From: Spirochaetota bacterium
GTDB lineage: Bacteria > Spirochaetota > UBA4802 > JAFGDQ01
Length of the DNA: 64,000 nucleotides
Assembly (NCBI GenBank): GCA_043803405.1
Contig: JAZDKB010000004.1
Span: 155,617 to 219,616, forward strand
Direction of reading: 5' to 3'
Made by a program: the position numbers and the translations under genes
Notes under the pieces: generated by a model
Told to the model about the DNA's origin: nothing
The model's database searches: none
The model's input: only the letters and a program-made list of their open reading frames with translations
In this document: piece after piece, positions 16,774-64,000 of the stretch
How positions within the stretch are numbered: the first letter of the stretch is position 1
Layout of the letters: every line of letters starts with the position of its first letter

Positions 16774-16850
16774 AATAACAATATTGGCTATAATATTATT
16801 TTATAAAAATATATTCAATAAAATATATTAATACCGTGGAAAAAATAATT

Positions 16851-44011: not shown

Positions 44012-44122
44012 TTTTCCCTCTTCCTAAAGTATTCAAAAAAATAAATTTTGATAATTCCAAGCTCAGATAGAAATAACCTGTAAACAATTTTTAAATTTTA
44101 ATAAAGGTTTTAAGACGCACTC

Positions 44123-46612
44123 TTAATCATTGTCCAGAACCTCACGCAGTTTAACAGCAAGCGATTGAACCGAAAACGGCTTCTGGAGAAAATTTACGCC
44201 TTCATCGAGCATTCCGCGATGTGCGATAACATCGGCAGTATAACCGGACATATACAGGCACTTTATGCCCGGACGTATTTTCTGTATTTGCTGTGACATA
44301 TCATGCCCGTTCATTTGAGGCAGAATAACATCGGTCACTAGCACATGAATATCTCCCTTATAATCACCGGCCAAACGAATTGCATCACCGGGCGTACGGG
44401 CAGTTATCAGATTGTATTTCTGAGTTTCGAGCATCATCTTTATCATTTTAAGCATTACGGGATCATCTTCTACAACCAGCAAAGTCTCTCCATGACTAGG
44501 AGGCGGAGCTCCGCTGCTTTCATTAAGTCTTTCAATAACCTGGCCTTCATATTTTGGCAGGTATATTTTAAATGTCGCTCCTTTGCCTGGTTCGCTGTAA
44601 ACATTTATAAAACCGGAATTCTGCTTAATTATGCCGTAAACAGTAGCCAGTCCCAGACCGGTTCCTTTGCCGGTTTCCTTGGTTGAAAAAAACGGTTCAA
44701 ATATTTTATCGATTGTATCTTTTTCCATGCCGCAACCGTTATCTTTAACTGTAAGCACTGTGTATTTTCCGGGCATATAACCGATATTATCGTTGCAGAA
44801 CGAATAATCAAAGGCTGCATTTTCTGTTTCAATTGTTATCTGTCCTACCCCGGCAATAGCATCGCGCGAGTTAACGCACAGATTTACCAGTATCTGTTCT
44901 ATCTGCGCAGGGTCCATTTTTACAGGCCATAATACAGGTTCCGGCTGCCATACAATATTTATATCTTCTCCGATCAGTCTCCGTAACAGCTTCAGCATAT
45001 CTTCAACGCTGTCATTCAGGTTAAGTATTCTGGGAGTAATTGTCTGCTTCCGTGCAAAAGCCAGCAATTGCTGTACAATTTTAGATGAACGAACGGCTGC
45101 ACTATGAATGTTCCTGAGATTCTCATGCATCGTCTGTGAAGCTTCCGTTTCTTCTAAAGCTAATTCAGTAAAACCTAGGATTACGCTCAGCATGTTGTTG
45201 AAATCATGCGCAACTCCGCCTGCAAGCCTGCCGACAGATTCCATTTTCTGGGATTGACGCAACTGATCCTCGAGGGATATTCGTTCCGTAATGTCTTCTA
45301 TCAATTCGATTGCAGATGTAATTTCTCCTTTAGCATTATAAACAGGCGATGAAATAACCCTGTAACTGTGCGTCTCTTTGTCGAATGGAATGTTCATTAC
45401 AGCTTCGTGAACCTGGCCATCTTTCAGGGTCTTAAATGTCGGGCAGTTGTCGCAAGGCGATCTTCGCTGCGGATTAAAAAACGTCCGAAAACAAACAGGA
45501 TGCAAAGCGGGATCAATTGAAGGGAACCAGTCGCGCATGCGCTGGTTCATCTCAACTATTTCCATAGCCGGATTAATCAGGACTACGCCGATCGGTATAT
45601 TCTCAACAATACTGCGCATCTTGGCTATATTTTCACGCAGTGCTTCTTCTATGGATTTTTGGTCCGTAACATCAATAACGGTTCCCGCAATAGCCGGCCG
45701 GCCGTCATATATCATTGTGCGACCGAATACTTTTAAAGTGACAATCTTACCGTTTTTAGTTACGCACTTCGTTAAAAATTCGATTTTGTCTATTTCACCT
45801 GTAAGGTGCTTTTTCAGGTTTTCCTCTATAATTTTTTTTTCTTCAGGAACGGCCAGGTCGACCGGAGAGACCTTATCAATGATCTCATCGCGTTCGTAAC
45901 CGTAAATCTCGCACCAGCGTTTATTGACAAATGAAAAAAGGCCGTCTTTAATAATGAAAACGCCGACTAATGAGTTCTCAACTACGCTGGCAAATTTTAT
46001 TTCCGAGTCCAGAAGAGCATTTTCCGTATGCTTGCGATGGGTAATGTCGCGCACTATTTCCAGACAGGCTGTAATTTTCCCTTCAGCATCTTTGACCGGA
46101 CTTGCCGTATTTTCACAGACTTTTATTTCGCCTTTAGGTGTTATAGCTGTTCTTACGGCTGTGTGCGGCAAACCATCCGTAAAGCTGAGATTTACCGGGC
46201 AACCGATACATATATTTTTACCGGCTTCATAGACAATGTGACATTTATCATTTGAATACCCGAACATTTTTTTCATATAATCATTCTGGAAGAGAATGTT
46301 GTAATTGCGGTCCTGCATCGTAACACCGAATTCCAGCGTATTAACTAATGACTCAAACCTGTTTCTTTCGGAAATCAGCTCAAGCTTTGCTTTTTGTAAC
46401 TCAGTGATATATTTTTTCTCCATATTTCCGGACTCGTAATTGTGGTAATTCTCAACAGAGGTTTTTTTATTTAATACCTGTATTTCATCTGCATGGTTTT
46501 CAATTTTCTCATTTTCGGATATGTTGATGCAAAGAGAGGGATCATTTCCGGCAGCTTCTTTGGATGTATTTGGCATGTCTTTAATACAGTCGGCTTTTGC
46601 TTGTTTAGACAT
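44123..46612 (-). CDS. Multi-PAS hybrid sensor histidine kinase/response regulator
   Basis: Three PAS domains, AHDFNN H-box, EPFFSTK/GTGLGL, C-terminal receiver. Confidence 0.92.
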
Positions 46613-46886
46613 ATATTGTTTCCAGGAAGTGACAATAATGTATTCAGTATTATCCGCAATTAAAAAATCAGGCGAGTGGGTATTACTGAATATTACATGC
46701 GCTATAGTTTTAATTAAATCGGATTTTACGTATACAAAGCTTTCATATTTATTTAAATATATATTTATAAAATCTGCAACTAACGAAGGAATGTTTCTTA
46801 GTTATATAATAATAAATGTTATAATGAATTCCAAGAAAATAATATCAGCACCGGCATTATCTCCCGGGATGTTTATATATAATCCA

Positions 46887-47663
46887 TTAACAGGAAATAT
46901 TATCTTTCCCGTTAAAAATAATAAAACTATTCGTTCTTACTCTCCCGATCAAAATTATGTTATGCTTTACAGCGAGTTCGAATCCTCTTGTTGTTGTAGA
47001 TGCCCTTGATATTATGACCGGAACTCCGGCGTTTATTGCTTTATAGACAATCTCGCTTGCAAGCCTGCCTGTCAGTATTATCATCTTATCATGTAAATTT
47101 ATTGAATTTTTAATTGCAAAGCCCAGCGATTTATCGACTGCATTATGCCTGCCTATATCGTCATAAAAAGCGAGCATCTCACCATCTGCGGAGTATAAGC
47201 CTGAGCTATGAACGCCATGCGTGAGATCATGCAGATTGGAATGATTAACAAATTTATCCATGATTTTAATTATTGTGGAGGCTTTTACTATAGGTAGTAT
47301 AGTATTTATTAAATCGCTATTTATGCCTTTTCGGGTCTTTCCCCCTGCTGAGGCAATAAATTTAACGGGCAGTGTTTTTTCCGGTATTTTAGCGTTTGGG
47401 CCTGTAATTATATTTATTTCTTTTCCATTTTCGTCTATAACTACTTCCCGTATATCATCATTTGATCTTATAATACTGTTTGAAAGCAGATGACCAATAG
47501 CGAACTCTTCCATGCCGGACCCGGAGCAGGCAATCTCTGCGTATGGGGTTCCATTAATGTGCATGGTGAAGGTATACTCAGAACTCAAAGGAATCGTGAA
47601 TGGTTTAATTCTGCCTCTTGAATATTTATTTACATCAATATCCTTATATTCCGGGAGCGGCAT
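46887..47663 (-). CDS. fdhD: Formate dehydrogenase accessory sulfurtransferase FdhD-like (copy lacking CxxC)
   Basis: THGVH, DIGRHNAVDK, TGRLASE motifs. Confidence 0.85.
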   Translation of the reverse strand: MPLPEYKDIDVNKYSRGRIKPFTIPLSSEYTFTMHINGTPYAEIACSGSGMEEFAIGHLLSNSIIRSNDDIREVVIDENGKEINIITGPNAKIPEKTLPVKFIASAGGKTRKGINSDLINTILPIVKASTIIKIMDKFVNHSNLHDLTHGVHSSGLYSADGEMLAFYDDIGRHNAVDKSLGFAIKNSINLHDKMIILTGRLASEIVYKAINAGVPVIISRASTTTRGFELAVKHNIILIGRVRTNSFIIFNGKDNISC

Positions 47664-47917
47664 TTTATTCCTGCAAATTTATAAAATTAATATTTTTTAT
47701 GCTTATGAGGTAGTTCCAATCCATATTGCCTCATCTCTTTATAAGAGAAATTGTTTTTGTCGTGTCAAGGAGATAATAATAATTATGCAATGATATTTAT
47801 CAAAATACACCTAAAAATGAATTTGACTTTTTAATAATTATCTATTGATTTAAAGCTGGACTCAGCTTGTGGAAATATCTTTTTGTGTATTATTAACCAG
47901 CCTTTAGGAGGTAATTT

Positions 47918-48100
47918 ATGAGTAAAAATGAAGAACTGATAGTGAGCGCGGCTGTTTTGCGCGATGGCAAGAAAAAACTCAGCTGCGCACAGGCGATTAA
48001 AATATCCCAGGATCGCAATATCTCATTAAAGGAAATAGGCGAAATCTGCAACAGTAACTCAATCAAAATAATTGAATGTGAACTTGGCTGTTTCAAGTAA
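47918..48100 (+). CDS. Small Cys-containing hypothetical protein
   Basis: AGGAGG RBS; LSCAQA...IGEICN...IIECELGCF. Confidence 0.75.
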   Translation: MSKNEELIVSAAVLRDGKKKLSCAQAIKISQDRNISLKEIGEICNSNSIKIIECELGCFK

Positions 48101-48101
48101 T

Positions 48102-48533
48102 ATGAAAGTTATTGTAATTGCAGGTGCCCGTTCCAATGTTGGGAAAACACATCTTGCGCGTGCTTTGTGTGAATTGCTTCCTGGTTCAGTACGGGTAAAA
48201 ATCGGACATCATGCGCCCAAATCCGATGGCGAAGAAAACCTGTATCCTATGGGCACCGGCTTTGAAGAAATTGCGTCAAAGCACAGTAATGCGAGTTTTC
48301 TGATAATCGAAAGCAACAGCATACTCAGGGAGATTACGCCGGAATGTACAATTTATCTTCCCGCAGATAATCCGAAACCCTCGGCTGAAATCGCAGAAAA
48401 AAAAGCTGATATCATCCGCGGTAAAACTTTTCCGAATTCAAAAATATCCGTACTGGCAAAAAAACTCGAATGCGACGAGACAGTAATCCGGAAGATCGTT
48501 GAATTATCCGGAGCACTTATAGATCAACAATGA
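48102..48533 (+). CDS. Small P-loop protein (MobB-like fold), uncharacterised
   Basis: VIVIAGARSNVGKT Walker A-like, IIESNS; ATG one base after the upstream stop. Confidence 0.65.
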   Translation: MKVIVIAGARSNVGKTHLARALCELLPGSVRVKIGHHAPKSDGEENLYPMGTGFEEIASKHSNASFLIIESNSILREITPECTIYLPADNPKPSAEIAEKKADIIRGKTFPNSKISVLAKKLECDETVIRKIVELSGALIDQQ

Positions 48534-48779
48534 AATAAGTTTTGATATTAGAACTCATCTTAAAATTATATAATGTATTTCAATTTATCGAATATAAAAC
48601 TTAATTTTGTAAATATATTTTCAATTCTATTGACTTTTTGGTTAGTTTGTTTTATAAATAATTGAATAAGAGCGTATTATGGGAGTAATGAAATATCTGT
48701 TGAAATAGGCTCTAATAGCATTTCCCGGCAAATAAAGCCGTATGAGTCAGATTACAGGAAATCTTATGGAGGTATTTTT

Positions 48780-49094
48780 ATGTCCAACGAATTACCCAAA
48801 CATTATCAAAGCATTAAAACCAGATTTGAGGAGTACAGTAAGGCGCTGGATGAATTAGGAAAAGTAGTCCACAACTCCGGGCCAATAGATGTTAAAAATG
48901 CGCATCTGATTCAGCTAGCAGCAGCTGCCGCGATCAGATCTGAGGGAGGAGTTCACAGCCATGCCCGCAGAGCAATGAAAGAAGGGGCCTCACCAGAAGA
49001 AGTATATCATGCTCTAATTCTGCTTACCGGAACCATCGGTTTTCCCGCAGTTGCTGCTGCAATTGCATGGGTTGATGATCTATTAGTGGAATAA
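48780..49094 (+). CDS. Carboxymuconolactone decarboxylase / AhpD family protein
   Basis: LIQLAAAAA...HSHARRAMKEGASPEEV...TIGFP. Confidence 0.88.
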   Translation: MSNELPKHYQSIKTRFEEYSKALDELGKVVHNSGPIDVKNAHLIQLAAAAAIRSEGGVHSHARRAMKEGASPEEVYHALILLTGTIGFPAVAAAIAWVDDLLVE

Positions 49095-49281
49095 CCTGCC
49101 GTCTCGCCCCCGACTCTTTAATTGTTGAATAGCTTCAACAATATTTTTATTTGGAATATCAGTATTATTTATTTAAATTAAATAATAGTTGTCATGATAT
49201 GGAATAGTTATTCAATTTGATTCTGACATCACTATAGCTTTAATTTGTATTGAGATTTGTTCTATTAATAAAAGGTGAATT

Positions 49282-50001
49282 ATGAAAATATTATCTGTTG
49301 CAGGGAAAAAAAATACAGGGAAAACAACTCTGGTGGTTATGATAGTCAAAGAGCTCGTTAAACGGGGTTATAAAGTCGGCACTATTAAACACACAAATCT
49401 TGGATTTGATCTTGAAGGCAAGGATACGTGGAAACACAGGGAAGCGGGCGCCGGAATTGTTGTCGGTTCAGGAGAAAATACATTCTTTTTTATAAATAAG
49501 CCATTAAGCATTGAAAATATTTTAAAACTTATCGGCAATACTCAGGAACTGGATTATGTCGTAATTGAAGATTTTAAATTTGCCAATTACCCCATAATTT
49601 CCACTATCGATTTTAAAGATGATTTTACAATTGCTAATGTTGATGTTTTCTCGTTAAAACCCCAGGACATTGTTTCACTGGTTGACCTGGCCGAAAAAAG
49701 GACCTATGATGTGATTCCCGGAGCAGATTGCGGTGAATGCGGTTTTAGCACCTGTGTTGAAATGGCCAAGGCCATCATCAGAGGAGAAGCATCGGAAAAA
49801 TCCTGTAAAATGAAAAAATCAAAGGATGTGGAGCTATATATAGGCGATAAAAAAATCCCTTTAAATCCTTTTGTCCAGGATTTCATAAAAAAAAGCATAA
49901 TGGGAATGATAAGCTCTTTAAAAACAGATGAGGCTAAAACTGGACAAAAAAATGGCGCACATGATAAAATAGAATTGTGGATAAAAAATTCTGAGAAGTA
50001 A
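49282..50001 (+). CDS. mobB: Molybdopterin-guanine dinucleotide biosynthesis protein MobB with C-terminal Fe-S-like domain
   Basis: [34 protein letters not shown]...C; IPLNPFVQ tail. Confidence 0.88.
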
Positions 50002-50036
50002 TATTAAAGATAAGGTTGGAGATTTTATTTTAAAAA

Positions 50037-50849
50037 ATGATAATACAGTCAGTTAAACAATTTCCGGTTACACGTCTATACGCTTCCGGTTCCGGCAACA
50101 AATGGATAAAAGAGGACAGGGGAGTAGCTGTGGAAGCGCCTTTTACAATAGACATAGAAGGTGTCGATTCTTATACTATCCTGTGCAGCCCGGATGACAG
50201 ACGTGCAATGGCCGTCGGATTTATGTTCTCAGAAGGGCATATCCGGAGTGTAAATGATATTGCAATGCTCGCCGATTGCATGGACTTCCCTGACGTGATG
50301 CGTGTCAGACTTATTAATACGCCTCAGAAGAAAACCGAAACACCGGGCCGCAATTTGCTTGTTGTCTCTTCCTGCGGAATGTGCGGGAGCACTAATATGC
50401 AGGAGCGGATTACAGCTCTTCCGCAGGTAAAACATTCATTGCTTATCGGCACTGAGACAATGAATAGTGTGATGCAGCTGATGGATGAAAAACAGGATGT
50501 GTTTAAAAAGACGCGCGGAACGCACGCAGTTCTTATCTTTGATGCGAAAGGAAATGCGGTCTCTATTGCTGAGGATATAGGCAGGCATAATGCATTGGAT
50601 AAAGCTATAGGAAAAATTATGCTTGCCGGAAAAAAAGCTGAAGGCTGCGGAGCCGTGCTCTCCGGACGTGTCAGCTTTGAAATGATCTCGAAATGCAGCA
50701 ATGCAGGAATTGAAATTGTTCTGGCGGTATCTGCTCCTACTTCGCTTGCCATAGAGGCAGCTTCGCATTGCGGTATAACTTTAACCGCATCGGTTAGAGA
50801 CGGAAGTGCAGTCATTTATACGTTTCCGGAAAGAATTGATCATTCCTGA
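50037..50849 (+). CDS. fdhD: Formate dehydrogenase accessory sulfurtransferase FdhD
   Basis: SSCGMCG, TRGTHA, EDIGRHNALDK, SGRVSFEM, VSAPTSLA. Confidence 0.93.
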   Translation: MIIQSVKQFPVTRLYASGSGNKWIKEDRGVAVEAPFTIDIEGVDSYTILCSPDDRRAMAVGFMFSEGHIRSVNDIAMLADCMDFPDVMRVRLINTPQKKTETPGRNLLVVSSCGMCGSTNMQERITALPQVKHSLLIGTETMNSVMQLMDEKQDVFKKTRGTHAVLIFDAKGNAVSIAEDIGRHNALDKAIGKIMLAGKKAEGCGAVLSGRVSFEMISKCSNAGIEIVLAVSAPTSLAIEAASHCGITLTASVRDGSAVIYTFPERIDHS

Positions 50850-51070
50850 TTATTTTACATTACCGAATTTTAGCGTTTTTTAGCTGCTTCTATTGCTTAT
50901 AAAAATCCCGAAAAAAATTAATGACAATATAATCGCTTTTACTAATGTTGTTAACAAACAGAAATAGAGCTTTATTTTCTTGACAATAAAGTGAGATTTT
51001 ATTTAATTACTATTAAAATGATAGATTTAATTTTGTCCCTCCTGAATTATTAACTAACGATGAATAACAA

Positions 51071-52189
51071 ATGCCAGGTAATCAACCTATGAGAAGACAA
51101 ACAGAGCATGTTAAACAATTAAAGAAAATGTATTCTAAAGAAGATGGAAGGTTAAAGGGAGAAGGTTATTGGGAAAAACTCCCATTATTCTGGTTTATCT
51201 TGTTTTTATCATATAAATGCACCAGAAGGTGTGAATATTGTTATGCTTTTAACCAGGTAGGCGATAAAAATAAGAATGAAATGGATGAAAATACTTTTTC
51301 AAGATTACTGGACTGGATTCCTGAAGTCTGGAAACTTAATAATGTTAAAGTAAATTCTATTATTTTTCTCGGCGGCGAACCATTGCTTCGGACGGACAGA
51401 ATTAAAAAAATTATGGATTCTGTTTATAAAAAAACCGACGGCATGCAGGGACTATGTTATACAAACGGCGATTTAATTGATTCTGTAAAATGGGAAGATC
51501 TTGAAGATATTCAATGGATGTCCATGAACATCACGGATATCAGTATTGAAGAATTAGCCAGAAGGATGAACGTAATAAAAGAAAGATCAAATGTTATCGG
51601 TCAGACGATTGTTGCTACCTTGGATGATTATAATTTAAATAGAATTCTTGATGTAAGCAGATTCGGAATTGAAAACGGATACCGGTTAAGATACCAAAAG
51701 AATTTATATAAAGGAATAGATGCGGAATTCCAGAAGAAAGTGTTGAAAAAATATCATGAATTGTGCGATTTACTGGAAGAATATATTATAAAAGGATACA
51801 ATGTCCATACTACTTTTCTGATCGATACTTTAATATCCGGGTGGGATGTTGATGATACCCCATATATCTGCGGTAGACGACTTGCAACGATATTCCCGGA
51901 TGGATCAGTGGGTCCGTGCATCAGGGATCATGCATTTAAAACCGGGACAATATTTGACCCGGATCCTTTGACTCTAATCCAATGTAATAAGTTTCATTAC
52001 GGTCTTGGAGAACCGGATATACCTGATGAATGCAGAGTATGCGAAGTCAGGGCTGCCTGCCAGGGAGGATGTCCGCATGACAAACTTCTAATGACCGGCT
52101 CCAGATCGGGAAAATCTGTTTCGTGTGAATTGCACAAGGAAATAATCCCCAGATTAAGATATCTGGATAAATTAAAAAGTAAAAAATGA
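51071..52189 (+). CDS. Radical SAM/SPASM domain protein (start uncertain)
   Basis: CTRRCEYC, LGGEPLL, TNG; SPASM motifs CGRR..PDGSVGPC and CRVC..CQGGCP..C. Confidence 0.9.
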   Translation: MPGNQPMRRQTEHVKQLKKMYSKEDGRLKGEGYWEKLPLFWFILFLSYKCTRRCEYCYAFNQVGDKNKNEMDENTFSRLLDWIPEVWKLNNVKVNSIIFLGGEPLLRTDRIKKIMDSVYKKTDGMQGLCYTNGDLIDSVKWEDLEDIQWMSMNITDISIEELARRMNVIKERSNVIGQTIVATLDDYNLNRILDVSRFGIENGYRLRYQKNLYKGIDAEFQKKVLKKYHELCDLLEEYIIKGYNVHTTFLIDTLISGWDVDDTPYICGRRLATIFPDGSVGPCIRDHAFKTGTIFDPDPLTLIQCNKFHYGLGEPDIPDECRVCEVRAACQGGCPHDKLLMTGSRSGKSVSCELHKEIIPRLRYLDKLKSKK

Positions 52190-52338
52190 TAGTCAATTTT
52201 ATTTAAAAAATTGCACATTGATCCAGGCTTTAGCTTTTCATTCTGCTATTTTTTAAGGAATTATTATAAAAGTACATATTGTTCTGTGACTGTCATTTAA
52301 ATCCTGGTTTATTTTTATTTCAACGCCTTGAAACATAA

Positions 52339-52404
52339 TACCCCGCTGACGCCGAAGGCGGAAGCCGGTGCGAAAGCACCGGGGGCTTGCCCGGGGAATT
52401 TTAT
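52339..52404. repeat. GC-rich nested palindrome related to 24252-24338
   Basis: TACCCCG...GGCTTGCCCGGGGAATTTTAT enclosing the hairpins CGCC-GAA-GGCG and CCGGTGC-GAAA-GCACCGG. Confidence 0.6.
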
Positions 52405-52758
52405 AATTTATTGATTTTTTTAAAAAAGTTCCCAATAAAGTTATTAAAAATGCAAAAATACTATTGACTTTTAACCGGACTGAAATGAAATGTTTATAAT
52501 TATAATTGGCTTCTCATTCGACTGAAAAAAATTTAATAAGAACACGGCTTTTAGTTTCAAAGCCGTTACAGGATAAACTGTAAAAGCTTTTAAAAATGAT
52601 AATTTATACAAAAAAACAAGTTTTGGCAGCCTAAAATGAATAGAAGCTATTAGTGATTTTTTTATATAATTATAAAAAATGCCGGTACAATTAACTAATA
52701 TTTTTATCAATTGATATTAATATTATTATCTGATTTATATTATTTTCAGGAGAGTAAA

Positions 52759-55452
52759 ATGAGTAATACGTTTATCTTAAACGGGAAAGAGACTCCGTTT
52801 ACACCCGGACAGATGGTTCTGGATGCTGCCCGCAACGGCGGAATCGAAATTCCTACATTATGTTATTTGAAAGACGCTACGCCTACCGGGGCTTGCAGGG
52901 TTTGTCTGGTCGAGGTTAAAGGCGCGCGTTCTTTAATGGCAGCCTGTTCCACTCCGGTAACATCCGGAATGGAAGTAAGTACTGACAGTGGTCTTGTTCA
53001 TAGAGCCAGAAAAATGAACATAGAACTGTTGCTTGCCAGCGGTAAGCATAATTGCCTTGTTTGCGAAGCAAACGGCGATTGCCGTCTTCAGAGTTTAGCT
53101 TATTTTTATAAGATTGAAACTCCAAGATTTACCGCAACCGAAGAATTTTATCCTACAGAGGATGTGAATCCTTTTATTGTCCGCGATTTCAGCCGCTGCA
53201 TTCTTTGCGGACGCTGTGTTCAGGCTTGTAATGAGCTTGTCGTTAACCGTGCGATTTCACAGGGTTATCGAGGTTCCGAAAGTAAAATTGTTACTGGAGG
53301 CGACCAGCCGTACAATAACAGCGAATGTGTTTTCTGCGGCCAGTGCGTTGAAGTTTGTCCCGTAGGAGCACTGACAGAAAAGAAAGCCAAAGGATTGGGA
53401 CGTCCGTGGGAAGTGCAGAAAATACGTACGACTTGTCCTTATTGCGGCGTCGGCTGTCAACAGTTGATGCATGTTAAGGATGGTAAAATTGTTAAAGTTA
53501 CAGCTGTCGAAGACGCCGAGCCTAATCAAGGCAGATTATGCGTAAAAGGCCGTTTCGCATACGACTTTATTTATTCAGAAGAAAGACTTAAAACACCATT
53601 AATCCGCCAGAAAAACGGAGAATTCAAGGAAGCATCCTGGGATGAGGCTCTCGATCTGGTGGCCAATAAATTTAAAGAGATTATTAAAAAAGACGGGCCG
53701 GATGCCATTGCAGGCGTCAGTTGCGCCCGTAGTATCAACGAAGATTCATACCAAATGCAGAAACTTTTCCGCGCGGCGATCGGGACGAATAACATCGATC
53801 ACTGCGCCCGTACCTGACACGCTCCAACAGTCGCCGGTCTGGCGACTTCGTTCGGTTCAGGTGCAATGACAAATTCTTTTGCAGATTTTAAAAAAGCTAA
53901 AATGATCTTATGCATCGGAACAAACATGACTGAAGCCCATCCCGTAGCAGCAACGTTTGTAAAAGACGCTGTGTTGGCTGGCTCCGAGTTAATTGTTGTA
54001 GATCCGAGACGCACTGAGCTTGTCGATTTTGCAAAAATGCATGTGCAAATTAAAGTCGGCTCTGACGTAGCACTGATTAACGGTGTTATGAACGTATTAA
54101 TTAATGAAAATCTTTACGATAAAAAATATGTAGACTCGTGTACTGTAGGTTTTGAGGAACTTAAAAAGAAAGCGATGGAGTATCCGCCAGAGCGTGCTGC
54201 AGAGATTGCCGGCGTTTCTGCAGATACAATCCGCAATTTAGCGCGTAAGCTTGCTTCCGTTAAACCTGCAATGCTGATGTATACTCTGGGTATTACCGAG
54301 CATATTTGCGGCGTAAACAACGTAATGTCATGCGCAAATCTCCAGATGCTTCTGGGTAACGTAGGTTTTGAGTGCGGCGGAGTTAATCCTCTGCGCGGAC
54401 AGAACAATGTTCAGGGCGCATGTGATATGGGCGCGCTTCCGAATGTTTTCCCGGGATATCAACGCGTAGATAACGCACAGGCCCGCGAAAAATTCATGAA
54501 AGCATGGAATGTAAAGAGTCTGCCCGAAAAGCCAGGTATGATGATGCCCACAATGATGAAAAACCTGACTACAGGCAAAATTAAAGCATTTTATGTATTC
54601 GGCGAGAACCTGGCCAATACTGAGCCGGATATCCATCATGTTGAAAAAGAACTGCAGTCAGCTGAATTCCTCGTATGTCAGGATATTTTTCCGACAGAAA
54701 CTACAAAATTCGCGCATGTTATTTTCCCAACTACGGCATGGGGTGAACATGATGGAACGTTTACAAGTTCAGAAAGAAGAGTCAATCGTGTAAGGGTAGC
54801 CAGTAAAGCTCCGGGCTTAGCTAAACCCAGCTGGTGGGTATTCAAGGAAATTGCCAAACGTATGGGGCATGATTGGCAATCCAACAGCGCACAGGAACTC
54901 TGGGATAATGAACTATCTGTGCTTGCACCCTCTATGGCTGGCATTAAGTTTTCCAGACTGGAAAATAACGGAATACAATGGCCGGCACCAACTGCAGACC
55001 ATCCGGGTACTCCTACAATGCATAAGGATGGCTGTTTTACCTGTGGACAGGGAGTGCTAAAAGCCATTGACTATATACCGCCTGCGGAAGTTCCGGATAA
55101 GGAATATCCGATGACACTTTCAACAGGACGCCGTCTGTATCATTATCACACAAGAACGCAGACAGGTCGATGCGAGGGTATCAATGATATTCTTGGCGAG
55201 GAAACAGCGGATATTTCACCGGCAGATGCGCTTGAAAAAGGCATAAAAGATGGTGAAAAAATATCGGTTAAATCGCGCAGGGGCAAAGTTGAGGTTAAAG
55301 CCCGCGTGACCAAACAGGTTCCAAAAGGGCTGGTTTGGATGGCTTTCCATTTCAGGGAAAACTGTGCCAACTGGTTAACTAATCCTGCATACGATCCGGT
55401 AACCCAAACCGCAGAATATAAAGCCTGCGCAGTGCGCATTGATAAGCTTTAA
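52759..55452 (+). CDS. fdhF: Selenocysteine-containing cytoplasmic formate dehydrogenase alpha subunit (NuoG-like Fe-S N-terminus, Mo/W-bis-PGD); Sec at 53815-53817
   Basis: ORFs 52711-53817 and 53866-55452 are in frame across TGA, reading DHCART-U-HAPTVAGL; CPYCGVGC and LRGQNNVQG motifs; no Tat signal. Confidence 0.95.
53829..53847 (+). promoter_or_regulatory. Putative bacterial SECIS hairpin of fdh
   Basis: AGTCGCC-GGTCT-GGCGACT stem-loop starting about 11 nt after the UGA. Confidence 0.8.
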
Positions 55453-55476
55453 TAGATTAGCTTTTTATAGTGAAAT

Positions 55477-55515
55477 AAAAAAAACATCCCGCCCAAAAGA
55501 CGGGATGTTTTTTTT
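55477..55515. terminator. Bidirectional Rho-independent terminator between fdh and moeA
   Basis: A8-CATCCCG-loop-CGGGATG-T8. Confidence 0.85.
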
Positions 55516-55619
55516 GCAGTCATCGTCAGAAATTTTACTTTTACTATAACTCGTCTCACAGACAGACAGTGCTTTACAAATTTGATAGAATTAATAAAAA
55601 TTAAAAATTCTGTTGCCTG

Positions 55620-56858
55620 TTAAATCTCATCATGCTCAATTAATTGAATAGCGACTTTTTCGCCTGCCTTAACTCCGGTAACATTTTCCGGTATCATTAT
55701 TAGACAATTAGCATCGCTCATTGAACGAAGTATGGAAGAATTCTGGTTGCCTGTTGTTGTAACGTAAAATTCGTTATTTTTAATGGTAAAATTGCCTCTT
55801 ATCAGGTTTGTCGCACCGGATAGCTTACTGATATCCTCTTCGAGAAATGCGCTCACTACAGGCTTCTCAATTTTTTTTGCACCCATCATTTTAAGCAACG
55901 CGGGTCTCACAAATTGAATAAATGAAGTAAGAGTCGGAACAGGATTTCCGGGCAAACCGAAAATTAATTTATTATCTTTTGTCCCAAAGGTGCAAGGTTT
56001 GCCAGGTTTTATATTAATCTTTTCAAATTCTATTGAAATATTCAGATCGGTATAAATATCTTTAACAAAATCGTATTTTCCGGCCGATACACCGCCTGTA
56101 GATATCACTACATCGGATTCCAGTGCTTTTAAAAATATTTCCCTCATATCCTTCTTAATGTCTTTAACAATACCTAAATAATTGGGAATTGCGCTATACT
56201 TTTTTACTTCAGAGTATAAACTGTATGCGCTGCTGTTTCTGATCTGGCCGGCTTTGATTTCTTCGCCAATATCCGCCAACTCATCGCCTGTCGAGATTAT
56301 AGCGACAGTCGGCTGTTTATAAACTTTTATTTTTGCGCGGTTAAGCGACGCAAGGATGCCTATATTGGCAGTACTAAGGCGTTCTCCTTTGTACAGTACA
56401 CTATCTCCTGTTTTAAGACTCACTCCGGCAAACCTGTAATTCCTGAATTTAGCTGTTTCGCTGAAAATTTTTACAAATCCGGCTGTTTCTTCCGTTTCTT
56501 CGAACTGAATTACTGCATCGGCACCTTCCGGTATAGGAGCGCCGGTCATTATTCTTATTGCAGTTCCTTTTAAAACTTTTTTCCCGGCCAGGGAACCGCC
56601 TGCCTGTACTTCGCCGGTAATTTGAAGCTTTATCGGGTTTTCCTTTGATGCGCCAAGCGTGTCTTCGGAAATTATCGCATATCCGTCCATTGCGGAATCA
56701 TCTAAAGGGGGAATCATTATATCCGAAACAATGTCCTCATATAAAACACGGTTAAATGCCTCCATTATGGAAATGTCTTCATAATTCAGAGGCCGGACTG
56801 AATTTAAAATAATATTTTGCGCTTCTTTATAGGATACTGTTAATTTTTTATTATTCAT
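55620..56858 (-). CDS. moeA: Molybdopterin molybdo/tungstotransferase MoeA
   Basis: SAMDGYA, IMTGAPIP, STGDEL, TGGVS, KPGKP, LPGNP. Confidence 0.95.
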   Translation of the reverse strand: MNNKKLTVSYKEAQNIILNSVRPLNYEDISIMEAFNRVLYEDIVSDIMIPPLDDSAMDGYAIISEDTLGASKENPIKLQITGEVQAGGSLAGKKVLKGTAIRIMTGAPIPEGADAVIQFEETEETAGFVKIFSETAKFRNYRFAGVSLKTGDSVLYKGERLSTANIGILASLNRAKIKVYKQPTVAIISTGDELADIGEEIKAGQIRNSSAYSLYSEVKKYSAIPNYLGIVKDIKKDMREIFLKALESDVVISTGGVSAGKYDFVKDIYTDLNISIEFEKINIKPGKPCTFGTKDNKLIFGLPGNPVPTLTSFIQFVRPALLKMMGAKKIEKPVVSAFLEEDISKLSGATNLIRGNFTIKNNEFYVTTTGNQNSSILRSMSDANCLIMIPENVTGVKAGEKVAIQLIEHDEI

Positions 56859-57159
56859 AGGAAAAAAATATTAAATTTAGGTTGATAATAATTTAGAATC
56901 ATTATAAATTTAAACTGAGAACAGTCAATATAAATTATTATTTTTTTATCTTTAATTGTTAAATAAAAAGATGTAGTTTTCCTGCCGTAGTTCAGGGAAA
57001 AATCACCTTCCTTTGTTTAATGAGTATCATCAAAAAAGAAAAAAATACTTGATTTACCAATGACTTTTTTTTAATCTGGTTAAAAAATGATTATTAAGTT
57101 GTCTTCGATGTTTAAAAACAATTTTAATAATATTTCGGAGATATTTAGAGGAGTTAATC

Positions 57160-59154
57160 ATGAGATACGCCGAGACAGGATATAATTTAGAGATTGATCT
57201 GGCGACAGGTAATATTGAAAAGGTCGAATCTGACCCTAAAGTACTTGAAACCTATCTTGGAGGACTAGGTTCCAGCGTAAAGATACATTGGGACAGGACT
57301 CCGCCGGAAGTAAAAGCGTTTGATCCTGAAAATCTGCTGATTTTCAGCGCCCCGCTTTTAGTAGGTACCCCTGCCATGAGTTGTAACCGTACATGCGTTA
57401 CCACAATATCACCTCAAACAAATTTACTAGCATATCCGATGATGGGGGGATTTTGGGCAGCTGAGCTCAAATATGCCGGATATGACAAAGTAATCATGCG
57501 CAACAAAGCACCGCACTTGTCATATATATATATAAATAATGATAAAGTTGAAATACGCGATGCCAGACATTTAAAGGGCAAAGGCGCTGTTGAAACACGT
57601 GAACTTATTAAAGATGAGTTAAACGATCCGAATGTAGTGGTTGCTGCAATCGGTATGGCCGGTGAAAACCGGGTTTTTCTGGCTTCCATTGAGCAGGGCC
57701 GTTCCAGTGCCAGCAGGCTCGGAGGCGGAGCGGTTATGGGGGATAAGAATGTAAAGGCTATAGCGGTTCGCGGAACAAAAGACCTTAACCTGGCACGCGG
57801 TGCAGAGTTTATGGAGGTCATGAAGGGCGTAATAGATTACATAAATTACAGGAATGCAAATCCTATTCCGGATGTAATGACCATTTTAGCAGGCATCGGC
57901 TCTCCGCAGGAAATGGTTCACACGGATGAGAGCTGGCACACTCAGAACTTTATGTGGGGCAACTCCCGTACAAGAAGAAGAGATTTCTGGGATGAAAAAG
58001 TTGCTGTAGAATGGCCGTCTACCCAGTTAGAAGCTATAAAACGATTAATCAGCTGTTATAATTGTCCGCAGCATTGCGGGGCATTGATTTCCTATAAAGA
58101 TGTTCCTAGATTCAAACAAAAATGTTTCACAAAAATGACTTATTCAATGGCGGCTTATGTTGATACCATGGCATTCAATTTCAGGGTTGCGCAAAAGGCC
58201 ACTGAGTATGGATTAGACGGATTCGGAACCCCGCAAATCCTGGCATTTGCTATTGAGCTTAAAGAAGCAGGCATTTTAACTGATGCAGACTTTGTAGGCG
58301 GCGAGAATTATCCGCCATGTCCGCCCGATAGTGATAAAGAAGGAAGATTTGAGTGGCTGCTTGACAGAATGGTTCGTCGTCAAGGAATCGGCGATTATAT
58401 GGCCGATGGTCTTTACTGGATGGCAAAGAGGATCGGCAAAGGCGCAGAAGATATTGAACACAATACAATTAAGAAACACGAGCAGCTTCCTCTTAAACTC
58501 GGGACTCTTGATCCTATTTATTTCCTTATGTATACCACAAATGAGAAGATAAGTATTACACAGATTGAAGGTAACTGGCCTCAGGCAGCATTCCCGACAA
58601 TGGAGCAGAGACTAAACTTTGTTAAGGATTGGCCGCAGCTTCCGGATGATCATTTTAAGCAGTATTTGCTGGATTGGGAACCGCGCGGAGAAAAAGCTAT
58701 TCCATATTTCCCGACTCCCCAGATGTGCGCTGAAATTGTTGACTGGATGGAAATGCTGCACAACATTGATGATGCTACCGGATACTGTTGCGGTATGTCG
58801 TCATTCTGCCTTAAGCCTCCGTATCACATACATGTTCACCCGAAGTTGATCTCTGCTGCTACAGGAATGGATTTAGATGAAGCCGGTCTTAAAAAGATAG
58901 TAAATAGAAGCAGAAATTTACACAGGGCATTCAACTTAAAGAGAGGCTTGGTAAGAGCTGATGAGGCTCCGCCCAAGGACCACTGGAAGAAGAGATTCCC
59001 TGAACTGGAAAAAGAACTGTTGGATACATATTACAAATACAAGGGATGGAATATGGACGGTGTTCCAACTAAAGAAAGATTCCATGAACTTGATCTGGAT
59101 TTCGCTGCAGAAGATTTAATAAAGAGGGGGATATTAAAAGATGGCCAAAATTAA
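57160..59154 (+). CDS. bamB: Tungsten-pterin AOR-family catalytic subunit of class II benzoyl-CoA reductase (BamB-like)
   Basis: MRYAETGY start, GSPQEM..DE.WH, ISCYNCP..C, KCF, TQIEG, KPPYHIH, HWK.RFPELEKELLD match recalled Geobacter BamB rather than generic AOR. Confidence 0.88.
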   Translation: MRYAETGYNLEIDLATGNIEKVESDPKVLETYLGGLGSSVKIHWDRTPPEVKAFDPENLLIFSAPLLVGTPAMSCNRTCVTTISPQTNLLAYPMMGGFWAAELKYAGYDKVIMRNKAPHLSYIYINNDKVEIRDARHLKGKGAVETRELIKDELNDPNVVVAAIGMAGENRVFLASIEQGRSSASRLGGGAVMGDKNVKAIAVRGTKDLNLARGAEFMEVMKGVIDYINYRNANPIPDVMTILAGIGSPQEMVHTDESWHTQNFMWGNSRTRRRDFWDEKVAVEWPSTQLEAIKRLISCYNCPQHCGALISYKDVPRFKQKCFTKMTYSMAAYVDTMAFNFRVAQKATEYGLDGFGTPQILAFAIELKEAGILTDADFVGGENYPPCPPDSDKEGRFEWLLDRMVRRQGIGDYMADGLYWMAKRIGKGAEDIEHNTIKKHEQLPLKLGTLDPIYFLMYTTNEKISITQIEGNWPQAAFPTMEQRLNFVKDWPQLPDDHFKQYLLDWEPRGEKAIPYFPTPQMCAEIVDWMEMLHNIDDATGYCCGMSSFCLKPPYHIHVHPKLISAATGMDLDEAGLKKIVNRSRNLHRAFNLKRGLVRADEAPPKDHWKKRFPELEKELLDTYYKYKGWNMDGVPTKERFHELDLDFAAEDLIKRGILKDGQN

Positions 59155-59680
59155 GAAAAAAGTTAAGTCTATAAAGGTTGATGCGGATAAGTGCAGCGGC
59201 TGCAGGTCATGCGAAGTAATCTGCTCCGCGTTCCATGCTATACCGAGATACAGCAGTGTTAATCCTGCAAGATCCCGCGTACAGGTTGTACGTTATCCGA
59301 TGAAAGATATTTGGATCCCGGTGTTTGCCGGCGAGTATGCTCCCGCCGAATGCATGGGAAGAGAGATATATACTATTGATAAAAAGGAATATAAGGAGTG
59401 CGATCTTTGCAGAGCCGCATGCCCGGCAAGGGACAGATTCAAAGAGCCCGATTCCGGACTTCCGTTAAGATGCGATATGTGTGAGGATGAGCCGCCGCTG
59501 GAAAAACCGAAGTGTGTTGAATGGTGCCTGTATGACGTACTGGAATATTCGGAAAGAGAAGAAGAAGTTGAAGAATCGGTTGAGATGGAGAAGGTTGAGG
59601 CAGGATTGACGGCGATGGTAAACCAGTATGGCTTGCAGTCGGTAATTGATACTGTTAGTAGAATCTCAAAGAAGGATTAA
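59141..59680 (+). CDS. bamC: Fe-S electron-transfer subunit BamC-like
   Basis: CSGCRSCEVIC, AGEY.PAEC.GR, CRAACP.R..FKEPDSGLPL.CDMC; overlaps the bamB stop. Confidence 0.85.
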   Translation: MAKIKKKVKSIKVDADKCSGCRSCEVICSAFHAIPRYSSVNPARSRVQVVRYPMKDIWIPVFAGEYAPAECMGREIYTIDKKEYKECDLCRAACPARDRFKEPDSGLPLRCDMCEDEPPLEKPKCVEWCLYDVLEYSEREEEVEESVEMEKVEAGLTAMVNQYGLQSVIDTVSRISKKD

Positions 59681-59845
59681 AACGTTAAGATGTAATTAAG
59701 AGGATTTGGTAACACAATAATTTACTGAAAATTTTTAATGTTTACTAAATTATCAGGTAATATTTCTTTGTTATTATCATCAACTATATAAGGTTCCTGC
59801 AATTGTAAGATCACGGAACTAAAAAAATTAATGAGGTGATAGAAA

Positions 59846-62800
59846 GTGGAAAACGTTGTATCATTAACAGAAAATATTGAGCAACTTTCCAAAAGTTTTG
59901 GAGAAAGTAATTTTGGAGATGTAATGGTTGTTGGCGGAGGGATTAGCGGTATTCAGGCTTCTCTTGATCTTGCCACTGCCGGCTTTAAAGTCTACATGGT
60001 AGAAAAATTGCCGAGCATTGGTGGGCACATGGCGCAGCTTGATAAGACCTTTCCCACCAATGACTGTTCTATGTGAATACTTGCACCCAAGCTGGTCGAG
60101 GTCGGCCGGCACCCAAATATAGAAGTACTCACTTTTACAGATGTAAAAAGTGTCGAAGGCGAAGCAGGAAATTTTGATGTAACCCTGATTAAAAGGCCCA
60201 GATATATTATTGAAGATAAATGTACGGGTTGTACCACTTGTGTGGAATACTGCCCTGCGAAATACCCTGATCAATATAATCAGGATATTTCAATGAATAA
60301 AGCGGTTCATATATACTTCCCTCAGGCAATTCCTCTTATTGCATACATAGATGAGAGCTGTCTTTATCTTAAAGAGAAGAAATGCCAGATTTGTGTAGGT
60401 GTATGTAAGAATGATGCTATTGATTTAAAACAAGCGCCGGAAAAAATAGAAATAAACGTAGGTGCTATTATTTTATCATCAGGTGTTGACCCGTATGATC
60501 CAAAACTAAAAGCGGAGTATCATTATGGGGACTATCAGAATGTTGTAACCAGTATGGACTTCGAGCGTCTTTTAGGATCTACAGGCCCATATTCCGGTGA
60601 GATATTGCGCGCATCCGATAAGAAGCATCCGCATAAAATGGCATGGATTCAATGCATTGGATCGAGAAATGCTACAGAAGATTCTCACAGTTATTGTTCA
60701 GCAGTATGCTGTACTTATACCCAGAAGCAGGTGATCTTGGCAAAAGATCATGATGCTGATGCTAAATGTGTGATTTTTCATAATGATGTTAGGGCATACG
60801 GAAAAGATTTTGAACGCTTTTACCAGAGAACAGAAGCTCTTTCAGATGTCCGGTTTATAAGAAGCTATGTTACAATCGGGAAGGAAGATCCCGTAACTAA
60901 GAATGTAACCATAAAATATTTCACTCCGGAGGGCGGAGTAAAAGAAGAAGAATTTGATATGGTTGTATTATCAGTTGGTTTGACTCCTCCTCTTTCAGTA
61001 AAGGAAATTGCAAAAACATTCGATATCGATCTGAATGATCACAATTTTTGTAAACTGAACCCGGCTAATCCTATGACAACGAGCAGGCCGGGTATATTTG
61101 TTAGCGGTGGCTTGCAGGGTCTTGTAGATATTCCTGAATCGGTTTTTAGCGCAAGCGGCGCTGGATCGCAAATCGGTGAGCTTTTGGATTACAGGCGTGG
61201 AAATCTTTCGAAAGAGAGGATTTACCCGGAAGAAAAGGATGTATCTAAAGAGGAACCTAGGATAGGAGTATTTGTGTGCCATTGCGGCGCAAATATCAGC
61301 AGAATTGTAAATGTTCCTGATACTGTTGAATATTGCAAAACATTACCTAATGTTGTTCATTGCCAGCAGCAGATATTTTCATGTGCTACAAACTCAGCCC
61401 AGGAAATAACGGATGTTACCAGAGAAAAAGGGCTTAACCGTGTTGTTATTGCTGCATGTTCCCCCAGAACGCTTGAACCGTTGTTCCGTGATACTGTCCG
61501 CGAAGCAGGGATAAATCAGTATTATATGGAAATGCCGAATATCAGAGAGCATAACTCGTGGGTACATCAGAAAGAAAAGGAAGAAGCAACACAGAAGGCT
61601 AAAGAAATAATCCGGATGTCGATAGCACGCGCCCGCAAGCTGGAGCCGTTAAAGGAATTCGACCTTAATGTAAATAAAGCGGCACTGGTAGTTGGTGGCG
61701 GTGTAGCGGGCATGACTTGTGCTTTATCAATAGCGAATCAGAAACACGATGTTTATTTAATTGAAAAGCAGAAAGCACTTGGTGGGATGACACGAAGAAT
61801 ACATTCTACTTTAGAAGGACTTGATGTTCAAAAATATTTAGATGATCTTATTAAGAAAGTATATCAACATCCTTTAATTCATGTTTATGAAAATGCGACT
61901 ATAGCAGAAGCGACAGGTTATGTTGGTAATTTTGTAACTACAATAAAATCTGACAGAGGTGTTACGGAGATTAAACATGGTGCTGCAGTTCTTGCAATAG
62001 GCGCTGATTTATATACCCCAACTGAATATCTATATGGGCAGGATGACAGAGTAATGACCCATATTGAGTTAGAAGGGAAAATAGCGGAAAAAGACGAAAA
62101 AATTATTAATGCAAATACATTGGTAATGATCCAATGTGTTGGCTGTAGAAATCAGGACAGAAATTACTGCAGCAGGGTATGTTGCAGTGAATCTGTAAAG
62201 AATGCCTTAAGTCTGAAAAAATTAAATCCAAAGATGGATATATATATCCTGTTCAGAGATGTGAGAACATACGGATTTAATGAAGATTATTACAGGGAAG
62301 CAAGAGGCAAGAATGTAAGATTTATACGTTATGAGACGGATGAGAATGATAAGCCCCTTGTTACTAAAATTAATGAGTACGGTAAGAATATTCTGAGGAT
62401 TACCGTAACGGATAAAACCTTAAATAAAAAGATAGCCATAGATGCTGATGCGCTTGCTCTGGCTGCAGCCATTGTTCCATCTGCTGTAACAAAGGAAATG
62501 GCCAGCTTATTCAAGGTTGTCCTTAGCCCGGATGGTTTCTTTAAAGAAGCACATGTCAAATTAAGGCCGGTTGAGTTTGCTGCTGACGGTGTTTATCTAT
62601 GCGGGTTAGCTCATTATCCTAAGTTCCTACAGGAAACAATTAACCAGTCTTATGGTGCTGCGGGCCGTGTGTTAACACTTCTTTCACATGATGTGGTTGT
62701 TGCTTCAGGTTCAGTTTGCTATGTGGATGAGAAAAAGTGTATGGGATGCGGGGCTTGTGTAGATGTTTGTACATATTCAGCACTGGAGCTTAATGATACA

Positions 62801-62977
62801 AAACAGGGCAAAAAGGTTGTAGTTAATCCCGTTCTATGCAAAGGAGATGGGCTCTGCAACTCAAAATGTCCAACCGGAGCCATTTCATTAAAGCATTTTA
62901 CAGATGAACAGATAGAATGTGAAATTGACGCTTTGACAGAAGAAGAAGAGATTGTGAAACAAATCGATGCAGCTTAA
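59846..62977 (+). CDS. hdrA: Selenocysteine-containing large HdrA-like flavo-Fe-S protein (BamE-like); Sec at 60074-60076
   Basis: ORFs 59846-60076 and 60242-62977 join in frame through TGA, reading [19 protein letters not shown]; two GGG.(S/A)G FAD motifs, QC.G.R, CS.VCC, terminal ferredoxin. Confidence 0.92.
60091..60110 (+). promoter_or_regulatory. Putative SECIS hairpin of hdrA/bamE
   Basis: GCTGGTCG-AGGT-CGGCCGGC stem-loop (with G-U pairs) 14 nt after the UGA. Confidence 0.7.
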
Positions 62978-63034
62978 TGTATAGATTACAAATGAAAGCT
63001 ACTTCTAATTTATTTAAATAAGAGGTGAAAACAA

Positions 63035-63889
63035 ATGAGTACTGGTAAATTTAAACCAAGAATAATTGCTTTCGCGTGCAATTGGTGAGCATACGGTGCT
63101 GCTGACCTGGCTGGAGTTTCCAGACTGCAATATTCAACTGAAATGAGAATTATCCGTGTAATGTGCTCTGGCAGAGTGGATATGGCGCATGTACTTAGAG
63201 CATTTTCAAATGGTATCGATGGTGTGTTTATTGGTGCCTGCCATCTGAATGAGTGTAATTATATTACTCACGGCAATTACCAGACACAAAACATGGTGTT
63301 ATTATTAAAAAAAATAATGGAACATATCGGATTTAATCCAAAAAGATTAAGAATGCAATATATGTCCGGTGCTGAAGGAAATGTTTTTGTTGAATCTTCA
63401 AACGATTTTATAAAAACTATTAAAGAGCTGGGACCTTTTGGAAAAGGCGAAGGGGAAGACGTAAAAAAAATAACATCGAAACTCGCAGATATCTCAAAGC
63501 TGGTTCCATACATTAAGGTATCCATGAATGCCAAACTGGCAAAACGTCTTGTGAAGGCTGAAGAGGATTTCGAAGAGTATGAAAAGGTTTTCACAAAAGA
63601 CGAGATAGAAAAGCTGTTTGCCGAAGTACCTGCTTACTATATCGAACCGGAGAAATGCCAGGCATGTATGACCTGTGCCAGAAGATGCCCTGCAGACGCG
63701 ATCATAAGTGCCAAGCAGGAAGTGCATATAGTTGATCAGGATAAATGCATAAAATGCGGGACATGCATTGAAGCTTGTCCGCCGAAATTCAAGGCAATTA
63801 CAAAGATAGTTGGTGCACCTGTTCCGCCGCCGCTTCCTGAAGGGAAAAGAGCTGTTGTTAGAAAGAGTAAAGAAAAAGAGGTTGCATAA
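63035..63889 (+). CDS. mvhD: Selenocysteine-containing MvhD-like [2Fe-2S] protein with C-terminal 2x[4Fe-4S] domain (BamF-like); Sec at 63086-63088
   Basis: ATG 63035 (GAGGTG RBS) reads FACNW-U-AYGAADLAG and continues in frame into ORF 63143-63889 (RVMCSGRV, ACHLNEC; CQACMTC/CIKCGTC). Confidence 0.92.
63108..63127 (+). promoter_or_regulatory. Candidate SECIS hairpin of mvhD/bamF
   Basis: CTGGA-GTT-TCCAG core, extendable with a bulge, about 20 nt after the UGA. Confidence 0.5.
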
Positions 63890-63892
63890 CCT

Positions 63893-64000
63893 ATGACAGA
63901 AGCAGTGATAAATTTAAATGATAAGAGTTATAATTTTAGTAATGCCATGGTAGCAGTTGGGGGAGTTGATGTTTGTTATTGCTACCAGTGCGGTAAATGC
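63893..64000 (+). CDS. N-terminus of an HdrC/BamD-like Fe-S protein (truncated by window end)
   Basis: ATG three bases after the mvhD stop; reads MTEAVINL...GGVDVCYCYQCGKC. Confidence 0.7.
   Translation, partial: MTEAVINLNDKSYNFSNAMVAVGGVDVCYCYQCGKC

Follow-up and report, generated by a model that had tools for sequence, protein, structure and literature searches.

A variant class II benzoyl-CoA reductase cluster with a ferredoxin-fused BamF next to an orphan selenocysteine formate dehydrogenase in a probable Spirochaetota bacterium

We analysed a 64,000-nt window of DNA from a probable Spirochaetota bacterium (contig JAZDKB010000004.1, assembly GCA_043803405.1), which makes up the last 64 kb of a contig (C4) in a 3.98-Mb, 94% complete genome. 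Its final part (46887–64000) carries bam genes preceded by genes for a selenocysteine (Sec)-containing formate dehydrogenase (FDH) and for cofactor maturation. The bam genes constitute, as judged from sequence, a variant class II benzoyl-CoA reductase cluster of predicted activity in which the BamGHI electron-input arm is apparently missing. The explanation that we favour, with a probability of roughly 0.55, is that this reductase is likely fed by ferredoxin through a domain fused to BamF, and that the FDH is likely a stand-alone, separately transcribed enzyme whose connection to it is a common ferredoxin pool together with a shared supply of pterin and selenium. In what follows, G000 is this genome, G001 and G002 are genomes of the same genus, and C and L numbers refer to contigs and loci, respectively. 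The host assignment draws on PyrB of the window, which falls into a 90% cluster with a protein labelled Spirochaetota bacterium, and on BamB, FDH and MvhD of G001, which bear the same label.

The assignment to class II rests on the BamB active site, BamC, a double-HdrA BamE and a Sec-containing, MvhD-type BamF. The bamB gene (57160–59154, + strand) matches PDB 4Z3W (E 4.8e-293), and its product retains E251, E257, H260 and C322 at identical numbers, with a His at 254 instead of 255; the known site comprises the tungsten ligand Cys322 and Glu251/His255/Glu257/His260 (PMC12096430). It is followed by bamC (59141–59680, +), coding for the FeS subunit, which follows bamB in nearly all bamB loci compared, by hdrA/bamE (59846–62977, +), encoding the double-HdrA flavoprotein, and by the ferredoxin-fused mvhD/bamF (63035–63889, +). 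Of an HdrC/BamD-like gene, the contig end leaves only the initial 36 codons (63893–64000, +), ending in CYQCGKC, and a full bamD is found in G001 and G002. C4 (window positions 63860–64000) and a second contig, C39, end in an identical stretch of 141 nt, which explains both the assembly break and the missing bamD; indeed, no contig begins with this shared end, and the remainder of the gene was not found in the assembly. An open reading frame (ORF) for a CCG-domain protein at the start of C6 was rejected as this remainder, being unmatched by the BamD queries from G001 and G002.

Compared with the Geobacter metallireducens complex Bam[(BC)2DEFGHI]2 (PDB 4Z3W; bioRxiv 10.64898/2026.04.10.717634), the BamB active-site residues and BamC are alike, as is the double-HdrA BamE, whose Cys-pair (Cys/Sec here) and Lys motifs lie at matching spacing, and both systems share the Sec-MvhD BamF and the start of a BamD-like gene. 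In contrast, no BamG, BamH or BamI orthologues were found here, BamF carries a BamH-type ferredoxin domain in place of the winged helix, bamD lies after bamF, Sec also occurs in BamE, the host is probably a spirochaete, and an orphan FDH is adjacent. Among other pathway genes, those for benzoate-CoA ligase, Had and Oah scored over their family cut-offs in the genome, and dsrA was not found in it. Seven of 61 genomes of the order carry bamB, the same seven that have a long BamF, and a search on titles and abstract openings retrieved no published description of a spirochaete bamB. Contigs from one RNA run (word share 0.08) hold exact pieces of bamB, bamC, bamE and bamF and one listed fdhA piece with 23 differences; as such contigs cannot rank genes, this run was not used as evidence.

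One in-frame TGA each interrupts fdhA, hdrA/bamE (Sec77, TGA at 60074–60076) and mvhD/bamF (Sec18, TGA at 63086–63088), always at catalytic or cluster positions. The selA, selB and selD genes and a tRNA-Sec are located on contig C26, so that the three codons plausibly specify Sec. The selenocysteine insertion sequence (SECIS) hairpins after them do fold, but not clearly above shuffled sequences (z −0.97, −1.97 and +1.0).

In the Geobacter enzyme, BamGHI merges electrons from NADH and ferredoxin, the C-terminal ferredoxin domain of BamH is the entry for reduced ferredoxin, BamI is docked by the winged helix of BamF, and BamD hands the high-potential electron to electron-transferring flavoprotein (ETF) (bioRxiv 10.64898/2026.04.10.717634). 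We compared the best 80 of 419 bamB matches, from genomes related to one another, and distinguished two forms of BamF, one of 255 aa with the winged helix and one of 269–286 aa ending in two [4Fe-4S] motifs. The BamF of the window has the second form, with an MvhD domain and a C-terminal 2x[4Fe-4S] ferredoxin domain (about residues 198–284). A nuoE-like bamG was present in the locus in 15/15 winged-helix rows versus 0/19 ferredoxin-fused ones (L020–L099, some with short flanks). Likewise, BamI orthologues, with 67–89% identity to the query, occurred in all 27 genomes with a winged-helix BamF and in none of the 30 with the fusion only, among which a single 53% match was recorded; this survey covered 59 genomes, with BamF types assigned by match length and two rows ambiguous, four of the 27 winged-helix genomes also holding a fusion and two genomes having neither form. 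The fused domain falls into one clade with the C-terminal domains of BamH, to which other NuoF/HydB tails do not belong (support 99/91, 55 rows), in a tree of 84 columns whose bootstrap had not settled and which fits a fusion in either direction.

Within this 94%-complete bin, no BamI orthologue was detected at E<=1e-45 (best match 39%), nor were bamGH orthologues found in the assembly, so neither the BamGHI arm nor the winged-helix BamF of the canonical BamBCDEFGHI complex was detected. The replacement of the winged helix, together with the lack of a detectable BamI, indicates that the input arm is apparently missing and, by analogy with BamH, has probably been replaced by direct entry of ferredoxin at BamF. 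The preliminary description of this DNA was thus right in implying a non-standard input to the reductase, but its suggestion that the FDH might couple to BamGH is not supported, since bamGH orthologues were not found and the NuoEFG-like genes on contig C48 are of another type. We found no published report of a BamGHI-less form or of an Fdh-Bam link, although the genome paper of Syntrophorhabdus aromaticivorans and the extended data of the preprint, which lay outside the scope of the search, could mention clusters without bamGHI.

Taking the Geobacter structure as a guide, electrons would pass from ferredoxin via the BamF ferredoxin domain to the C-terminal clusters of BamE and, through the [2Fe-2S]/Sec site of BamF, to the bifurcating FAD of BamE; from there, one electron would go to BamC/BamB for ring reduction and the other via BamD to ETF. 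In G002, the genes after bamF encode a membrane CCG-domain protein and EtfBA (L101, 8130–12056), in keeping with the proposal that electrons leave the Geobacter complex by way of ETF. The potential of formate is near −420 mV at standard state, and that of ferredoxin was taken as about −500 mV. The potentials of the two acceptors, benzoyl-CoA (about −620 mV) and ETF (about +16 mV; bioRxiv 10.64898/2026.04.10.717634), average about −302 mV, which implies that ferredoxin can drive the reaction and formate only when abundant. Under syntrophic conditions formate lies at about −290 mV (PMC8805022), a marginal donor, so that in a syntroph the FDH would more probably serve as an outlet in which ferredoxin is spent on forming formate. 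It would pass electrons from ferredoxin to CO2 or from formate to ferredoxin, and where formate is kept low it would most likely supply this compound to a partner organism. On contig C27, this genome also carries genes for the alpha and beta subunits of a Tat (twin-arginine translocation)-type Fdh-N with no in-frame TGA (L004, 7361–11114), a probable periplasmic formate outlet.

The FDH gene itself (fdhA, 52759–55452, +) encodes an 897-aa cytoplasmic alpha subunit with a NuoG-type N-terminal FeS domain, scores 808 bits against TIGR01591 (cut-off 666), and has its TGA (53815–53817) at Sec353 in the motif CART-U-H, followed by a hairpin; the Sec-His active site and the Sec machinery are thus both in place. 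As the preliminary description stated, the protein has no twin-arginine leader and no NuoE/NuoF-like or FdhB gene adjoins fdhA in the window. NuoE/NuoF-like subunits were likewise not found beside the FDH in the loci of G001, G002 and G021, and no FdhB adaptor gene lies next to either FDH of this genome (C4 or C39). The resemblance noted earlier between the FDH N-terminus and BamI is real insofar as the domain is NuoG-type, yet it is generic, because identity is 33% and the FDH retains a His/Cys [4Fe-4S] motif that BamI does not have. A derivation of this N-terminus from BamI was rejected, given that BamI orthologues are 67–89% identical to the BamI query. The alpha-subunit architecture is that of the NAD-linked enzymes FdsABG/FdhAB (PDB 7VW6, 6TG9; E 2e-203), which differ from this locus by their NuoE/NuoF-like partner. 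A 'monomeric formate dehydrogenase' of syntrophs has been named for Desulfobacterota and Spirochaetota, and a syntrophic Spirochaetota class expressing formate-forming genes has been described (PMC7382037). The present enzyme is like it, by description only, in its cytoplasmic FdhA, the absence of an adjoining beta subunit and its probable spirochaetal syntroph host; the accessible text of that paper does not mention a link to ring reduction.

Several observations argue for a separate FDH. First, fdhA and bamB have between them moeA (molybdenum/tungsten insertase; 55620–56858, − strand; PF03453/PF00994/PF03454), which runs the other way, and the convergent fdhA and moeA are parted by a terminator-like hairpin with an A run and a T run on its two sides (at about 55477–55515; read by eye from the sequence and not among the features listed by a scan), so that fdhA and the bam genes do not form one transcript. 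The integrated island proposed earlier consequently stands as a gene linkage but not as a single transcription unit. Second, the closest FDH orthologue outside the genus, 80% identical and equally orphan, is found in G021, a 99% complete genome without detectable bamB, long bamF or bamA, where it adjoins mod transport genes and an Fdh-N operon. Third, G006 and G009 possess the fusion-type BamF without an FDH of this clade.

We consider less likely, though it is the alternative that survives best, a docked FDH that has replaced BamGHI in a few lineages by plugging into the ferredoxin socket of BamF. The resulting Fdh-Bam(BC)DEF complex would resemble methanogen Fdh-MvhD-HdrABC, with formate feeding the bifurcating FAD of BamE, or reverse flow releasing formate, and with Sec and Sec-free versions switched by an RNA leader described below. 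Methanogen FdhAB-MvhD-HdrABC complexes carry out flavin bifurcation at an HdrA-type FAD. Genes for FDH, MvhD and HdrA stand together there as they do here (PDB 7BKB family, structure matches), and bacterial HdrBCA-MvhD-FdhBA clusters (PMC5736913) have a gene content similar to that of this locus. On the other hand, no FdhB is encoded here, the FDH has a NuoG-type N-terminus, HdrA is the double form of BamE, and the outputs would be benzoyl-CoA and ETF rather than ferredoxin and heterodisulfide.

Gene order speaks for docking in several lineages. In all three genus members fdhA lies 1.7–2.8 kb upstream of bamB in the same direction, and the same three genomes hold a second copy of the set, fdhA2-bamE2-bamF2 in a row (on C39 in G000). 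An FDH gene follows bamE-bamF directly, in the position of bamGHI, in L262 (G103, Bacillota) and L206, a single leader serves the FDH, bamE and bamF genes in L206, L213 and L230 (in the order FDH-bamE-bamF in the last two), and L273 reads nuoEF-FDH-bamE-bamF. The recurrence of FDH together with BamE/BamF, as envisaged in the preliminary description, is hence borne out. Moreover, seven of eight rows of the Cys-type BamE clade lie beside an FDH, though these loci were fetched with an FDH query, and between the Sec and the Cys paralogue of the FDH the N-terminal domain is better conserved (82%) than the catalytic part (69%), as would be expected if both had a partner in common. We also noted FDH genes adjoining bamE-bamF(ferredoxin) in the unrelated lineages of L262, L206, L213, L230 and L273, a methanogen-like hdr-mvhD-fdh block preceding bamB in L028 and L085, and, in L283 (G062:C1, about 1607000–1611000), a Cys-FDH gene behind which come genes for a 435-aa MvhD fusion and a NuoE-like protein.

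Against docking, an FDH within 10 kb was found for 3/32 fusion-type bamF loci versus 1/37 other bamF rows in 52 genomes, counts that are lower bounds owing to short contigs and limited candidates, and an FDH catalytic domain in 3/80 other bamB loci (2/44 among loci of at least 15 kb). The FDHs sharing operons with bamEF have other N-termini, 46–51% identical to this clade, so that a conserved docking type is not apparent; the metagenomic loci of this clade mostly lack bam genes and often contain fdnGH next to the FDH; and at the concentrations typical of syntrophy, formate falls marginally short as a donor. This FDH clade was therefore rejected as a general partner of fusion-type reductases, also because 50 other bamB genomes (of 68 selected) contain no FDH N-terminus above 54% identity. 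Altogether, the proposed coupling of the FDH to HdrA/MvhD finds partial backing in the genus-wide linkage and the fdhA-bamE-bamF copy, and the synteny of fdh with bam holds in 3/3 genus genomes; but the linkage is mainly that of one genus and does not extend to most other bamB or fusion-type bamF loci.

The second locus bears on the same question. The products of fdhA2, bamE2 and bamF2 on C39 are 73%, 71% and 64% identical to the C4 copies, with Cys replacing Sec in all of them. BamE2 is a true BamE, since the Cys-type clade includes one from the bam cluster of S. aromaticivorans. The bamF copies, 64% identical overall, reach 95% in the ferredoxin domain, which suggests, from these values, a recent gene conversion and a duplicated bamD. 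UGA-containing leaders with a SECIS-like hairpin occur on C39 (42478–42624, 43764–43910 and 46889–47035) and C15 (17520–17666) (L002, L292). Those on C39 stand before fdhA2, bamE2 and a TsoB-like rhodanese gene, and the C15 copy heads an operon for a double-cubane reductase and MetQ. Each comprises an ORF of 33–36 codons containing a UGA, 11 nt after which comes a hairpin, as well as a terminator overlapping an anti-Shine-Dalgarno stem. A model built from 15 copies matched in 16/80 chosen genomes and in 3/151 genomes drawn from the phylum of S. aromaticivorans; all 32 listed matches have TGA at the same model position, which the model itself favours. In the two hairpins 94.6% of cells pair, with few double changes, and terminator pairing was lost when the 3' half of the upstream ORF was left free in 17 of 24 folded leaders (26 tried), including 4/4 here. 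The genes behind the leaders, the repeated ones assigned by N-terminal sequence, code for Cys-BamE (8), Cys-FDH (4), double-cubane reductases (10), selenocysteine-lyase-like desulfurases (3) and rhodaneses (2), as well as YedE, YedF, SelB, an Xdh subunit and one protein without assignment.

Attenuators of the trpL type combine a short upstream ORF containing the sensing codon with competing antiterminator and terminator structures. The leaders have both an upstream ORF with a sensing codon and a switchable terminator; they differ from the trpL type in that the codon is UGA with a SECIS-like hairpin, and they lie on C39 and C15, outside the window. No Rfam or NCBIfam family matched them, and no published account was found, as judged by title. 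We predict that the leader is likely a Sec-sensing attenuator acting as a selenium switch, and that the C39 set likely serves as a back-up when selenium is short. Apart from L206, the model found nothing before the Cys-FDH orphans L197–L212, which means that not every Cys-FDH gene has the leader. A leader copy with the remnant of a double-cubane reductase start precedes the Cys-FDH of L263 (G065, about 16400–16830), which suggests that leaders spread by copying from that reductase operon. As fdhA2 and bamE2 have separate leaders on C39, the fact that they are neighbours speaks for common control by selenium no less than for a complex, and may simply reflect a selenium regulon.

We regard as improbable a supply in trans by the NuoE/F/G-like genes of C48, which would deliver NADH/ferredoxin electrons to the reductase or act as diaphorase of an NAD-linked FDH. 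Its NuoF is indeed 60–63% identical to BamH proteins, a similar module exists in G002, and further families of the order have FDHs related to this one that adjoin nuoEF. However, the NuoG-like partner (237 aa, 39% to BamI) has extra Cys motifs, the NuoF tail falls outside the BamH/BamF clade, the module already has its own NuoG-like subunit, the BamF of this cluster offers no winged helix to a BamI-like protein, and G001 (90% complete) has both fdh-bam loci, its best NuoF match being a 55% hydrogenase type. The C48 genes were accordingly discarded as bamGHI on the divergence of their NuoG-like partner and the placement of the NuoF tail. They lie directly after porCDAB-like genes (L007, 7760–10803) and form a possible pyruvate-linked NAD/ferredoxin module.

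Equally hard to sustain is a mere tungsten/molybdenum-pterin and selenium gene island in which FDH and reductase share no electron path that matters: the three genus members arrange their cofactor genes in different orders, cofactor or radical S-adenosylmethionine (SAM) genes lie near 27/80 bamB loci, and the G021 orthologue has the mod and Fdh-N neighbours described above, yet the repeated fdh-bamE-bamF operons in unrelated lineages would be left unexplained.

Several results weigh against the stand-alone FDH and ferredoxin-fed reductase that we favour. Linkage of FDH and bam at both loci in 3/3 genus genomes is more than a loose link needs, and in L206, L213, L230 and L262 a gap of 80–250 bp separates the FDH gene from a co-oriented bamE or bamF. 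Extracts of Syntrophus aciditrophicus, which has other FDHs, displayed no ferredoxin-to-CO2 activity (PMC8805022). In addition, the DNA beyond bamD is absent from this 94%-complete assembly, leaving any genes there unseen, and the Dch candidate falls below its family cut-off (198 vs 292 bits).

The remaining genes of this part of the window largely concern cofactor supply, and every gene named in the preliminary description (two fdhD copies, mobB, the radical SAM gene, Sec-fdh, moeA and bamBC-hdrA-mvhD) is present. The first fdhD sulfurtransferase gene (46887–47663, −; PF02634, E 1.8e-57; TIGR00129 over cut-off) is followed by a 60-aa ORF without family match (47918–48100, +), a gene for a 145-aa protein with a P-loop-like start, also without family match (48096–48533, +), and genes for a carboxymuconolactone decarboxylase family protein (48780–49094, +; PF02627) and for MobB with a C-terminal FeS domain (49282–50001, +; PF03205 and PF04060; TIGR00176 over cut-off). 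The second fdhD copy (50037–50849, +) encodes a protein 27% identical to the first, and the radical SAM gene spans 51071–52189 (+). Near bamB, fdhD occurred in 8/80, moeA in 18/80 and FDH in 3/80 loci, the former two nearly always without FDH; an FdhD inside a bam cluster has already been published (PMC13101534). Homologues of the radical SAM protein (64–83%) lie beside bamB in 5/80 loci, none with an FDH, and homologues of the 145-aa protein beside bamB or moeA in 5/80 bamB loci, making both candidate maturation factors for the tungsten cofactor. A palindromic REP (repetitive extragenic palindromic)-like repeat (52314–52404) is not fdh-specific, having more than 20 genomic copies by blastn and copies in G002 too; the hairpin upstream of fdhA, considered as a riboswitch, is this genome-wide repeat, and no Mo/W riboswitch matched Rfam at gathering score in 44000–64000. 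A promoter scan was uninformative (63 found versus 53.6 expected).

Collectively, the locus points to benzoate degradation in a probably spirochaetal lineage. Thirty of the 59 sampled genomes, that of S. aromaticivorans included, seem to be without the BamGHI arm. For the electron donor of ATP-free ring reduction in many methanogenic aromatic degraders, the locus offers two candidate answers: ferredoxin alone, or formate via a docked FDH.

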